This document shows, piece by piece, positions 2,911-39,105 of a DNA stretch of 39,105 bases. The notes beneath the pieces are model-generated. The model saw nothing but the letters and a program-made list of their open reading frames with translations. It was not told the origin of the DNA and ran no database searches. Source of the stretch: an uncultured Ruminococcus sp. (lineage in GTDB: Bacteria; Bacillota; Clostridia; Oscillospirales; SIG627). Location: the NCBI GenBank assembly GCA_902796545.1, contig CADBPF010000010.1, positions 1-39,105 of the forward strand, written 5' to 3'. Every line of letters begins with the position of its first letter. Position 1 is the stretch's first letter. Both the position numbers and the translations under genes were made by a program.

Positions 2911-4629
2911 TTATCCCGCCTCCGTAACGGATCGCCAGAGATCGGCGTAAACGCCGTTTTGTTGAAGCAGGCTTTCGTGGTCGCCGCGCTCGGCGATGCC
3001 CTCGTCGGTGACGACCAGGATCTCGTGCGCGCCTTTCACGGTGGTGAGCCGGTGCGCGACGACGATCGTCGTGCGGCCGCGGCACAATTCGTCCAGACTT
3101 TGCTGGATCAAGGCTTCGGTCGCGTTGTCGAGCGCGCTCGTCGCCTCGTCCAGAATCAGAATCGGCGGGTTTTTCAGAAAGACCCGGGCGATCGAGATGC
3201 GCTGCTTCTGCCCGCCGGAAAGCTTCACGCCGCGCTCCCCGGTCACGGTATCGAATCCGTCCGGCAGGCTCATGATGAACTCGTAGATATTCGCTTTTTT
3301 CGCCGCCTCCACGACCTCGTCGAAGCTCGCGTCCGGATTTCCGTAGGCGATATTCTCATAGATCGAGGAATTGAACAAAAACACGTCCTGCGCGACGATG
3401 CCCACGTTGCGCCGCAGGGACGCGCGCGTCATGGTGCGGATATCCCGCCCGTCGATCCGGATCACGCCGGCGTTGATCTCGTAAAAGCGCGGGATCAGAT
3501 GGCAGATCGTGGTCTTGCCGCCGCCCGTCGGCCCGACGAGCGCCAGCGTGCGCCCCGGCTCGACGGAAAACGACACGTCGCGCAGGATCTCGTGCGTGCG
3601 CTCCCCGTAAGAAAACGAGACCGCGTCAAACTCGATCTTCCCTTCTAACGTGCCGACCGCGATCGCGTCCGGCGCGTCCGCTTCCGGCGCGCAGTCCATG
3701 ATCTCGCAAAAACGCGCAAAGCCCGTGATGCCGTTCTGGTACTGCTCCACGAAATTGACAAGCTTCCTGACCGGATTCATAAAGACGCTGATGAACATGA
3801 TAAAGGCGGTCAGATCGGCAAGGTCGATCTTGCCGGAAATGCAGAAAAGCCCGCCGGCGACGTACAGGATCACCTGCAGAATATCGCCGATGAAGCCCGT
3901 GGTGCTGATAAACTGCGCCATGACCCGATACGCGTGCGAGCGCGCCTTTACGAACCTGCGGTTGCCCTCGCCGAAGCGGGCGTTTTCGTACCCGGTCGCG
4001 TCGTAGGCTTTTGCCACGCGGATGCCGGAAATGCTGTTTTCCAGCCCCGCGTTCACTTCCCCGATCTCCACGCGGGTCCGCTTGAACGCCTCCGACATCG
4101 AAACGCGCTTTTTGGCGGCGAACAGCACCATGACGGGAAGCGACAAAAACACGATCAGCGCAAGCGGCAGATAGATGCTCGCCATGATGACAAAGGCGCC
4201 GACAAGCATGATGATCGACAAAAACAGATCCTCCGGCCCGTGGTGCGCGAGCTCCGAAATATCCATCAGATCGTTGATGATCCGGGACATGATCGTGCCG
4301 GTCTTGTTGTCGTCGAAATACTTTAAGGGCAAGGTTTGCAGGTGGGCGAACACCTCTTTGCGCATATCCGCCTGGATCCGCACGCCGACGATGTGCCCGT
4401 AATAGGCGACGAAATAATTGAGCCCGTATTTGATAAGATAGATCCCCGCGAGCATCGCGCCGAAGACCAATAACAGCCGGATCTGCCCGTTGGGGATAAA
4501 CTCGCGCAGCATGGTGCGGGTAATCACGGGATACACGAGATCGCACAAGGCGAGCACGAAAGCGCAGATCATATCCGCGCAAAACAGTTTCACGTGGGGA
4601 CGGTAATATTTTGCAAAGCGGCGGATCAT
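2911..4629 (-). CDS. ABC exporter, fused permease/ATPase
   Basis: N-terminal TM domain; Walker A GPTGGGKT, signature LSGGQKQR, Walker B ILDEATSALD. Confidence 0.95.
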   Translation of the reverse strand: MIRRFAKYYRPHVKLFCADMICAFVLALCDLVYPVITRTMLREFIPNGQIRLLLVFGAMLAGIYLIKYGLNYFVAYYGHIVGVRIQADMRKEVFAHLQTLPLKYFDDNKTGTIMSRIINDLMDISELAHHGPEDLFLSIIMLVGAFVIMASIYLPLALIVFLSLPVMVLFAAKKRVSMSEAFKRTRVEIGEVNAGLENSISGIRVAKAYDATGYENARFGEGNRRFVKARSHAYRVMAQFISTTGFIGDILQVILYVAGGLFCISGKIDLADLTAFIMFISVFMNPVRKLVNFVEQYQNGITGFARFCEIMDCAPEADAPDAIAVGTLEGKIEFDAVSFSYGERTHEILRDVSFSVEPGRTLALVGPTGGGKTTICHLIPRFYEINAGVIRIDGRDIRTMTRASLRRNVGIVAQDVFLFNSSIYENIAYGNPDASFDEVVEAAKKANIYEFIMSLPDGFDTVTGERGVKLSGGQKQRISIARVFLKNPPILILDEATSALDNATEALIQQSLDELCRGRTTIVVAHRLTTVKGAHEILVVTDEGIAERGDHESLLQQNGVYADLWRSVTEAG

Positions 4630-37394: not shown

Positions 37395-38477
37395 TTACGC
37401 GTTTTCTTTGGCGAATTTTTGCATGAAGTCCACGAGCTTCTCCACGCCCTCGATCGGCATGGCGTTGTAGATCGAGGCGCGCATCCCGCCGACGGAGCGG
37501 TGGCCTTTCAGGCTCAAAAGCCCTTCCTTTGCCGCCTCGGCGCAGAAAAGCTTGTCCTTTTCCTCGTCGCCGGTGACGAAGGTCACGTTCATCATGGAGC
37601 GGCAGGACTTGTCCGCTTTCGCTTTGTAAAAGCTCTGGCTGTCGAGATAATCGTACAAAAGCGCGGCTTTTTTCTCGTTGATCGCTTTGCGCGCCGAAAG
37701 CCCGCCGGTCGATAAGAGCCAGTCGAACACGAGCCCCGCGATATAGATCGCGTAGCACGGCGGCGTGTTATACATGGAATTATTATCCGCCATGGTCTGA
37801 TAGTCGAGCATCACGGGCGTGCAGGGCAGCGACGCGCCGAGAAGATCCTCGCGCACGATCACGACGGTCAGCCCCGCGGGCGCCATGTTCTTCTGCGCGC
37901 CGGCGTAGATCACGCCGAATTTCGATACGTCCACCGGCTCGGACAGGATGCAGGACGACAGATCCGCGACGAGCGGAACGTCGCCCGTGTCCGGGATATA
38001 CGGGTATTTCGTGCCGAAGATCGTATTGTTGAAGCAGATATGCGCGTACGACGCGTCGGCGCTGAAATCCCCGCGCTTGACCTCGGGGATCTTGGAAAAG
38101 CCGTTATCCTCCCCCGACGCGACCAAGCGGATATCGCCGTACTTCTGCGCTTCTTTATAGGCTTTTTTGGAAAACTGACCGGAAACGATATAATCCGCTT
38201 TGCCGGTCTTGCCGATCAGATTCAGCGGCACCGCCGCAAACTGGGTGGAGGCGCCGCCCTGCAAAAACAGGATCTTATAGTTGTCCGGGATCTGCATGAG
38301 TTCGCGCAAGGACGCAAACGCGGCGGTGATGATCGCGTCGTACTGCTTGCTGCGATGGCTCATCTCCATCACGGACATCCCGGAGCCCTGATAATCCGTC
38401 ATCTCGCGCGCCGCCTGCTCGAGGACGGGCAGAGGCAGCATGGACGGACCGGCGGAAAAATTATAAACGCGTGCCAA
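37395..38477 (-). CDS. serC: Phosphoserine aminotransferase
   Basis: NFSAGP, EMSHRS, QGGAS, AGAQKN, YNTPP, GHRSVGG; TTG start after AAGGAG; promoter TTGACG-17-TAAGAT at 38515-38543. Confidence 0.97.
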   Translation of the reverse strand: MARVYNFSAGPSMLPLPVLEQAAREMTDYQGSGMSVMEMSHRSKQYDAIITAAFASLRELMQIPDNYKILFLQGGASTQFAAVPLNLIGKTGKADYIVSGQFSKKAYKEAQKYGDIRLVASGEDNGFSKIPEVKRGDFSADASYAHICFNNTIFGTKYPYIPDTGDVPLVADLSSCILSEPVDVSKFGVIYAGAQKNMAPAGLTVVIVREDLLGASLPCTPVMLDYQTMADNNSMYNTPPCYAIYIAGLVFDWLLSTGGLSARKAINEKKAALLYDYLDSQSFYKAKADKSCRSMMNVTFVTGDEEKDKLFCAEAAKEGLLSLKGHRSVGGMRASIYNAMPIEGVEKLVDFMQKFAKENA

Positions 38478-38634
38478 AAAAGAACATCTCCTTATTGTAA
38501 ATTCAATTTGTTATATCTTATACTTTTTTTCGGATTTCGTCAAGTCCAAAGCCGAAGAAACGTCGATTTGCCACAAAAGAAAAACGGCAAACCGGATTTC
38601 TTTGCCGAATGTGGCGAAGATCAGCGGAAAACAC

Positions 38635-38663
38635 TTGATTTTTTCGCCCGCCGTCCGTATAAT
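38635..38663 (+). promoter_or_regulatory. Sigma-A promoter for the tRNA
   Basis: TTGATT-17-TATAAT, 12 nt before tRNA position 1. Confidence 0.85.
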
Positions 38664-38675
38664 GAGACCGTACCC

Positions 38676-38752
38676 GCCCTCGTAGCCCAGCTGTATAGAG
38701 CGACCGCCTCCTAAGCGGTAGGCCGGCGGTTAGAATCCGCCCGGGGGCGCCA
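38676..38752 (+). tRNA. tRNA-Arg(CCT)
   Basis: Cloverleaf: GCCCTCG/CGGGGGC acceptor, ACCGC-CT-CCT-AA-GCGGT anticodon arm, GGCGG/CCGCC T-stem, A20 identity base, encoded CCA. Confidence 0.93.
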
Positions 38753-38793
38753 TGAAAGAACCCTGATTTGTCTATCAAATCAGGGTTCTTTCA
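38753..38793. terminator. 18-bp perfect hairpin directly after the tRNA
   Basis: TGAAAGAACCCTGATTTG-TCTAT-CAAATCAGGGTTCTTTCA. Confidence 0.75.
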
Positions 38794-38966
38794 GTTCTAT
38801 TCGCCTGCGGCGAGTGATATTGGGCTTCGCCCAGTTATATTCGCTTCGCGAGTGATATTGCGCTTCGCGCAGTTAAAAGGAGAATAGAATATCACTTCTC
38901 GCGTCAGCGAGAAATATAACTGTCCCGAAGGGACAATATAACTGCCGCCATAGCGGCAATATAACT
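38793..38966. repeat. Array of mini-hairpins separated by 9-nt linkers in two inverted arms
   Basis: Four AGTKMTATT linkers with 4 hairpins, then four AATATMACT linkers with 3 hairpins. Confidence 0.85.
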
Positions 38967-38993
38967 TGAAAAAACACATTTATATGTTAAAAT
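38966..38993 (+). promoter_or_regulatory. Possible sigma-A promoter facing out of the window
   Basis: TTGAAA-16-TAAAAT with extended TG. Confidence 0.5.
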
Positions 38994-39105
38994 GAATTGT
39001 GAAAAGATCTCAACAAATCGGGATTTGTCTTGTGGGGAGTAACTTTGAAGTTTCCGAAGCAACATATCGGGATTTGAAAGGAGTACTGAAACTTTTAACA
39101 TGAAA

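Follow-up and report, generated by a model that had tools for sequence, protein, structure and literature searches.

A Gut-1 element behind a tRNA-Arg gene of an uncultured Ruminococcus is one copy of a two-armed, dispersed repeat of gut and rumen Clostridia

The REP, BIME and REPIN sequences of Enterobacteria and Pseudomonas are multi-copy intergenic palindromes that lie after genes, form inverted mosaics and are distributed patchily between relatives. REPs and BIMEs have been credited with roles as terminators, as stabilisers and in protein binding. Modular non-coding repeats also include BOX of Streptococcus pneumoniae and MITEs of the Correia and bcr1 kinds, in which the number of internal units varies and the predicted folds are stable. 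Single-strand initiation (ssi) sites and related signals of phage and plasmid DNA form another class of comparison, as hairpins of the d(GCGNAGC) type are located at the G4 origin, at ssiA of RSF1010 and at N4 promoters, according to a review of mini-hairpins (PMC13037366). Among structured RNAs, the closest described motif is Gut-1 (Rfam RF01706). The discovery paper (Weinberg et al., 2010; PMC2864571) gives it the rating 'RNA? Y', does not class it as cis-regulatory and lists it as 'Human gut only'. Apart from that paper, the motif is named in the literature searched only by a structure-prediction benchmark of 2026, and neither gives a function.

The element described here lies near the end of a 39,105-nt stretch of DNA (the window), which is one entire contig of a 1.40-Mb genome in 125 contigs. 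The first-pass annotation described a ladder of seven perfect stems with complementary linkers that could not be assigned to a known family. When 38400-39105 was read again, the ladder and its layout were confirmed base for base, but the family proved to be a described one. In an Rfam covariance search, the left arm (38792-38863, plus strand) matches the full Gut-1 model, positions 1-77, with 58 bits (E 4e-11), above the gathering score of 50 bits that defines membership, while the right arm matches on the minus strand (38850-38944) with 26.8 bits (E 0.003). The covariance model alignment also recovers the three consecutive hairpins and the conserved linker of the family, and the compensated pairing shows in the aligned copies described below. 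Since a match to a described Rfam family had been set beforehand as the criterion, the element is not novel as a family. Almost certainly it belongs, as a single copy, to a modular intergenic repeat dispersed in gut and rumen Clostridia, with Gut-1 as its left arm. The Rfam motif and the element share three consecutive short GC hairpins with a conserved GUGAWAU-type linker between them. However, the Rfam model has 77 positions and covers one arm, whereas the unit here measures about 215 bp and consists of a long hairpin (H0), two inverted arms and a long-range helix (P1). The motif, reported only from gut-associated uncultivated bacteria, acts here as a dispersed repeat. It is already known; the extended anatomy was not found in the literature searched.

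Upstream in the window lie housekeeping genes (a class-V aminotransferase, a 2-hydroxyacid dehydrogenase, an aldolase and a GyrB/ParE-like protein). The gene that the repeat abuts encodes tRNA-Arg with anticodon CCT and an encoded CCA end (38676-38752, on the plus strand like all features that follow; ARAGORN; Rfam tRNA 58.3 bits). A candidate promoter of the tRNA unit (38635-38663; TTGATT, 17 nt, TATAAT; 10 of 12 matches in a consensus scan) is outside the repeat and serves as context only. H0, an 18-pair hairpin found by a terminator scan and folding (38753-38793), extends from one base past the tRNA CCA to the first base of the first linker, L1; together with the T-rich L1 it scored as terminator-like in a consensus scan. 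The left arm (38793-38870), which holds the RF01706 match, runs L1, h1, L2, h2, L3, h3, L4, h4. Its linkers (38793-38801, 38813-38821, 38833-38841 and 38851-38859) carry the word AGTKATATT with one mismatch, in L1, and the mini-hairpins between them and after L4 are perfect GC stems. After a centre of 17 nt (38871-38887), the inverted right arm (38888-38966) follows as R1, H5, R2, H6, R3, H7, R4. Its linkers (38888-38896, 38913-38921, 38935-38943 and 38958-38966) carry the inverted word AATATMACT, and stems H5-H7 stand between them; all seven stems of the window pair perfectly. Linkers L4:R1 and L3:R2 are complementary at 9/9 positions, L2:R3 and L1:R4 at 8/9. Five loops are C-GNA-G triloops: one is read on the plus strand and four on the minus strand, where three belong to the word GCGAAGC. 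The 5′ strand of P1, X (38795-38805), comprises most of L1 and the 5′ half of h1, and its 3′ strand, X′ (38879-38889), overlaps the first two bases of R1, so that the centre is listed as 38871-38889 when the end of X′ is included.

Chance is excluded as the origin of this ladder. AGTKATATT occurs seven times in the window against 0.21 expected, a count reached in none of 100 shuffles; among related copies, 300 of the 375 distinct spacers are paired over their whole length down to a loop of at most 5 nt, compared with 5% of shuffled ones; and the 218-nt stretch, folded with parameters for RNA or for DNA, gives z-scores between −9.7 and −11.2 on both strands. A coding reading of the 60-66-aa open reading frames (ORFs) across the array is ruled out because unit lengths of 16-26 nt keep no frame, and these ORFs are by-products of the repeat. 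A promoter in the centre, where many copies have TATAAT, is likewise ruled out, since there is no −35 element and the variable base covaries with L1. On the minus strand the mini-hairpins of the right arm pass a simple terminator scan. This call is not relied on, since the stem base can take up three of the nine linker bases in pairing, which leaves little T-tract.

Selection on pairing, proposed at first pass from the window stems alone, is borne out by an alignment of 54 copies (A1), on which the covariation and ladder counts are based. In this alignment the linkers are the most invariant columns, and RNAalifold picked the long-range helix P1, in which L1 and the 5′ half of h1 pair with the centre in each of the 54 copies. 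The window copy has 10 of 11 P1 pairs Watson-Crick and one G.A; across the 54 copies the variable pair is AU in 25, UA in 15, CG in 12, GU or UG in 2 and broken in none. Taken together, P1, h3 and H5-H7 have 98.5% of cells paired against 76.2% in shuffles and 369 compensated cells against 104, values reached in 0 of 500 shuffles. The covariation score is 0.53, with slid controls below 0.1, and 20 of 35 pairs have changed on both sides. P1 and h1 compete for the same four bases, a logic kept with a different sequence in the copy on contig C11 of the same genome. The stacked four-way junctions suggested for the ladder stand only in part: the innermost rung, L4:R1, is 97% paired across the 54 copies, with 7 compensated cells and 7 G.U, whereas the outer rungs are unpaired at linker position 4 in 14 (L3:R2), 29 (L2:R3) and 48 (L1:R4) copies. 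As L4:R1 overlaps P1 and the base of h3, these pairings are either alternatives or a pseudoknot.

The repeat is widely but unevenly dispersed. The genome of the window holds nine Gut-1 matches at E ≤ 0.001, four of them over the cut-off, and about ten array loci, several at contig ends, which fits repeats breaking the assembly. Among relatives, 43 of 61 genomes have matches (0 to 57 per genome), and a single genus spans genomes with none and genomes with 20-29; an even sample across the class has Gut-1 in 30 of 151. A pattern scan with one genome per species found at least 120 stretches in gut and rumen metagenome-assembled genomes (MAGs). Labels of these MAGs among the matches listed include Oscillospiraceae, Acutalibacteraceae, Ruminococcus, Christensenellaceae and Butyrivibrio crossotus. 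Copies of the AGTKATATT subfamily mostly score near or under the RF01706 cut-off. A 17-unit array at locus L107 was discarded as a chance pattern match, its spacers being non-palindromic. Viral contigs gave 19 pattern matches, of which only L173 (a full 4+4 array with H0) and L186 are real hairpin arrays; the others are coding or AT-rich tandem repeats. The plasmids searched gave no match, and phages a single weak one, in an unannotated faecal contig with 79% identity over half of the query.

Between related genomes the element comes and goes. The orthologous tRNA-Arg(CCT) locus of three congeners has no array and a plain terminator instead, while a paralogue on contig C70 of the same genome, behind tRNA-Arg(CCG), is 88% identical to the window copy, H0 included. 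The cassette is dispensable and, given this presence and absence, appears to spread like a selfish repeat. The REP/MITE-like character first proposed for it, that of a repeated, structure-conserved element, is supported, the repeat being multi-copy and patchy among relatives. Separately, the acceptor and T arms of the window tRNA-Arg(CCT) are markedly unlike those of its counterparts at the three syntenic congener loci (L143-L145). Some arrays elsewhere (L119:1-137 and L128:1-223) have been enlarged by tandem duplication of single units, reaching 8-10 linkers in one orientation with identical neighbouring units.

The full unit is ordered H0, left arm with four linkers and four mini-hairpins, centre, and inverted right arm with four linkers and three hairpins. 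The 120 loci among the matches listed contain 135 arrays, 82 of them two-armed and 53 exactly 4+4; in a separate count, again among the matches listed, 55 elements of the 4+4 type measure 169-181 bp. Across the class, 19 adjacent pairs of Gut-1 matches in plus-then-minus order were counted and none was noticed in the reverse order. Of 54 oriented copies, 44 have a perfect hairpin of 10 or more pairs directly at L1 and none has one at the right end, compared with 4 of 1032 random positions. The Gut-1 unit is polar. The base preceding L1 is C in 49 of 54 copies, and H0 types recur with compensatory changes; read on the plus strand, they have T.G wobbles and loops of GAAA or GTAA. Nearly the same H0 stands behind other tRNAs on contigs C70 and C27 of this genome. 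By crude ORF calling, 27 of 32 copies share their direction with the longest upstream ORF and 23 of 31 with the longest downstream one. Other subfamilies use the linker words GTGAAAT, AGTGAAGTT and GTGATAT and coexist within one genome, yet both arms invariably share the same word. The word-to-word period is 16-26 bp with a broad spread and no preferred helical phase, and 28 of 30 exact occurrences of the word in the genome fall inside arrays.

One-armed arrays also occur. Compared with flanking ORFs they lie 17 against 10, without clear polarity, in a set that mixes truncated copies, right arms and another subfamily. A one-armed subfamily at L057, L058, L062 and L074 has 4-5 units and ends in AGTTGNGGAATATTCCA-like palindromes; its hosts include MAGs labelled Butyrivibrio crossotus and Christensenella. 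At L125, two arms 2.2 kb apart were considered as an autonomous element and rejected, since they flank a membrane protein and a serpin-like gene and so represent two separate arrays. A repeated word, GAACGGGGGACAGGTAC, and its complement flank one-armed arrays there (L125:1090-1300 and 3490-3640). To the right of the element, at least seven MAG loci (L036, L071, L073, L083, L090, L100 and L101) share some 35 conserved nt that include AAAGTATATAACCCACTATGACACTTTCAA and have no match at gathering score in an Rfam search.

At the right end of the window copy, a candidate promoter of the next gene (38966-38993; TTGAAA, 16 nt, TAAAAT, preceded by TG; 10 of 12 matches in a consensus scan) has as its first T the last base of R4. 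A near-consensus −35 element starting on the last T of R4 is found in 5 of 53 oriented copies, the window included. Of 24 RNA runs listed, contigs from four were compared over 38300-39105; they leave the array uncovered, although such contigs cannot show absence, and start at 39013-39032, past the promoter-like site. This gives only a weak hint that the transcript of the next gene starts to the right of the array. The 53 nt of promoter and leader just after R4 (38975-39027) are 90.6% identical to L025:6261-6313 of a rumen Ruminococcus MAG, while the genes that follow differ; the one in L025 is, by its look, presumably a Nudix-type hydrolase. The window leader after R4 also contains ATCGGGATTTG twice.

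A position at the 3′ end of a tRNA, part of the original description, is typical of this genome and scarce elsewhere. Here, eight of about ten array loci start at most 60 nt from a tRNA CCA end, and arrays stand behind 8 of about 24 tRNA-unit ends with enough sequence, at eight different tRNAs. At these eight ends, no other terminator was found. In contrast, only 12 of the 135 arrays at the loci among the matches listed are tRNA-adjacent, with the tRNA on the H0 side in 12 of 12, and most arrays of congeners do not lie beside tRNAs. Adjacency to tRNAs is therefore a lineage habit of a terminator-associated repeat and not a defining feature. In the same genome, at least six tRNA genes have a contig end no more than 3 nt away, and others have one within 63-89 nt; the assembly seems to be broken up by repeats that follow tRNAs. 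A second repeat family is found behind tRNA-Glu(TTC) (L008:1586-1821, which is C22:18800-19035 of this genome) and, on contig C36, behind tRNA-Ser(CGA). It is ordered as a terminator, a long hairpin with a CT-rich and a GA-rich arm, and a conserved module. The module, which contains a tRNA T-arm-like word and CATCTTTTTCGTA, also closes the Gut-1 arrays of contigs C51 and C11 on their far, right-hand side.

Compared with known repeats, the Gut-1 unit resembles REP, BIME and REPIN sequences in its multi-copy, post-gene, inverted and patchy layout. However, REPs conserve the sequence of the stem, whereas in Gut-1 the stems are variable and conservation falls on the linker. The arms are complementary in the linkers only, so that inverted copies do not form the one long hairpin of a REPIN. 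Nor is there a link to Y1/RAYT enzymes: the Y1 (HUH) transposase PF01797 occurs in 23 of 43 Gut-1-positive and 6 of 18 negative genomes, and is missing from 9 of 14 genomes with at least 20 copies. The unit shares modularity, stable folds and positions beside terminators and promoters with BOX, Correia and bcr1, but not their usual terminal inverted repeats, target-site duplication or related transposase. For 44 elements, the longest words shared by the two flanks match those of a mismatched-flank control, giving no target-site duplication, and no related autonomous element was found, unlike in cut-and-paste MITEs of the DDE type. Clustering of 1323 ORFs from the 120 loci among the matches listed gave generic families only (AraC-type regulators, ABC transporters, SDR enzymes, cysteine synthase), with no recurrent transposase or nuclease. 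A gene of about 117 aa lies within some 50-400 nt of the array at 6 of the 120 loci among the matches listed (L024, L030, L038, L053, L106 and L139); we take its product to resemble the four-helix-bundle '23S rRNA intervening-sequence protein' type.

The reading preferred here, tentatively and at somewhat less than an even chance, is that the cassette spreads as a repeat and serves as a portable boundary that separates transcription units. It builds on the observed family membership, copy number, architecture, pairing, polarity and context. H0 with the T-rich first linker would terminate the upstream gene intrinsically, which in the window is tRNA-Arg, and the structured body would occupy the space up to the next promoter, and may fold in single strands reading into it, trapping or stabilising read-through ends. 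Like a Rho-independent terminator, H0 and L1 combine a long, GC-containing stem with a T-rich tract directly at the 3′ end of a gene. Unlike such terminators, H0, itself a predicted terminator, precedes a conserved structured body of 170 bp. A boundary role is suggested by the frequency with which H0 stands at L1, the co-directional upstream ORFs, the constant placement of tRNAs on the H0 side and the −35 elements that begin on R4. Several features argue against it. The mini-hairpins have no U-tracts of their own, 34 of 54 H0 hairpins have no T-run in the 3′ arm, the strict conservation of a 9-nt linker is not needed for termination, and no means of spread has been found. The composition of loops and stems, described next, also counts against a boundary.

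The loops differ strongly between the two strands. Among 286 spacers, G..A loops occur in 156 on the strand running away from the centre and in 3 on the other, which is the inward strand of the Rfam model and the one carried by a left-arm read-through transcript. The GNA mini-hairpin bias first noticed in the window is thus real and general. GCGNAGC or GCGNNAGC is found in 74 of 373 spacers on the outward strand against 1 on the inward, and in 40 of 54 copies the minus strand of h2 consists of the bare 7-nt GCGNAGC. Such hairpins are very stable as DNA and poorly so as RNA, d(GCGAAGC) melting at 76.5 °C and r(GCGAAAGC) at 39 °C according to the mini-hairpin review (PMC13037366). A terminator or insulator does not explain the loop asymmetry; the prevalence of GCGNAGC at h2, with those stabilities, also counts against the boundary. 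With the centre as its mirror, the asymmetry is what a DNA process would naturally give, and it fits a single RNA poorly. Stem pairs are 95.5% Watson-Crick (1598 pairs, with 16 of the G.T type on one strand and 29 on the other), and such near-pure Watson-Crick stems are unusual for RNA structure and a further point against the boundary. In the opposite sense, the basal ATT/AGT pairs include T.G pairing only on the inward strand, and two G.T in P1 and seven in L4:R1 are wobbles on the plus strand. The strand signals conflict, with wobbles favouring the inward strand and loops the outward; the Watson-Crick share and the fold z-scores are uninformative on strand.

These signals underlie the main rival to the boundary cassette, a possible but doubtful one, namely that the conserved body works as single-stranded DNA read by an enzyme specific for hairpin plus word (a nuclease, primase or recombinase). 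Opened duplex would show, in each arm, d(GCGNAGC)-type mini-hairpins spaced by a fixed 9-nt word on the strand directed 5′ to 3′ outward from the centre, which is either the lagging-strand template of forks leaving the centre or the template for entering polymerases. The enzyme would mobilise the repeat or act in replication, and the terminator would be incidental or an insertion target. Loop asymmetry with dyad symmetry, the outward GCGNAGC words and their stability as DNA, their occurrence at known origins and promoters in the source cited above, the Watson-Crick stems and the equal folding of both strands are all consistent with it. So are patchy copy number, near-identical paralogues and, as in REP families, several linker subfamilies in one genome. 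The words are the same 7-8-nt d(GCGNAGC) and d(GCGNNAGC) as at ssi sites, here on one strand only. Those sites, however, are single signals on phage or plasmid DNA, whereas here the words stand in arrays of seven at dozens of chromosomal intergenic sites, as candidates for priming or binding. No enzyme of this kind was found, and against it stand the generic neighbours at the 120 loci among the matches listed, the failure of Y1 to track Gut-1, the lack of target-site duplication and the conserved basal T.G pairs on the opposite strand. The strong polarity towards the upstream gene also suggests a link to transcription. The specific proposal that Gut-1 is a dyad-symmetric array of d(GCGNAGC)-type DNA mini-hairpins fused to a portable terminator hairpin, and not a small RNA gene, is regarded as unlikely.

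That Gut-1 is a small non-coding RNA gene, transcribed and acting in trans or on a protein, appears improbable. This possibility draws on the covariance match above the cut-off, on the rating as a non-cis-regulatory RNA in the discovery paper (Weinberg et al., 2010; PMC2864571), on the strong covariation and on the plus-strand G.T exceptions in P1 and L4:R1. The architecture argues otherwise: H0 abuts L1 and leaves no room for a promoter, and two convergent copies stand back to back. A copy number of 0 to 57, patchy within genera, degenerate and expanded arrays, and G..A loops on the antisense of the Rfam strand also speak against an RNA gene. The RNA contigs of four runs leave the array uncovered, which does not show that it is silent. 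Least probable is a duplex-DNA platform resembling an iteron, partition or centromere site, in which a protein binds eight 9-bp words, four per orientation, and the palindromes are spacers: the invariance of the linkers and the same inverted word in both arms, even in subfamilies with other words, are as it predicts, but the period lacks the fixed phase of iterons, spacers are strongly selected to pair, strand-asymmetric loops are unneeded by a duplex site and the word is hardly used outside arrays.

Taken alone, the window is ordinary, a known motif behind a tRNA. Gut-1 has stood in Rfam since 2010 as an orphan 'sRNA' known from gut metagenomes only. In assembled genomes the motif is half of a two-armed, multi-copy intergenic repeat, joined to terminator hairpins, that appears to break MAG assemblies at tRNA genes. 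For annotation this carries a warning, as Gut-1 matches come as convergent pairs, dozens per genome. The two-armed layout, the terminator hairpins, the assembly breaks and the strand signature of DNA mini-hairpins together favour end mapping, DNA probing and pull-downs over searches for small RNA targets. If the reading as DNA mini-hairpins holds, the strand chosen by Rfam would be the less structured of the two, and Gut-1 would represent a class of structured single-stranded-DNA repeat in gut Clostridia, read by a hypothetical enzyme that recognises hairpin plus word. Such an enzyme would either help the repeat to spread to sites after tRNA genes and terminators or make it a signal that primes or blocks polymerases entering from either direction.
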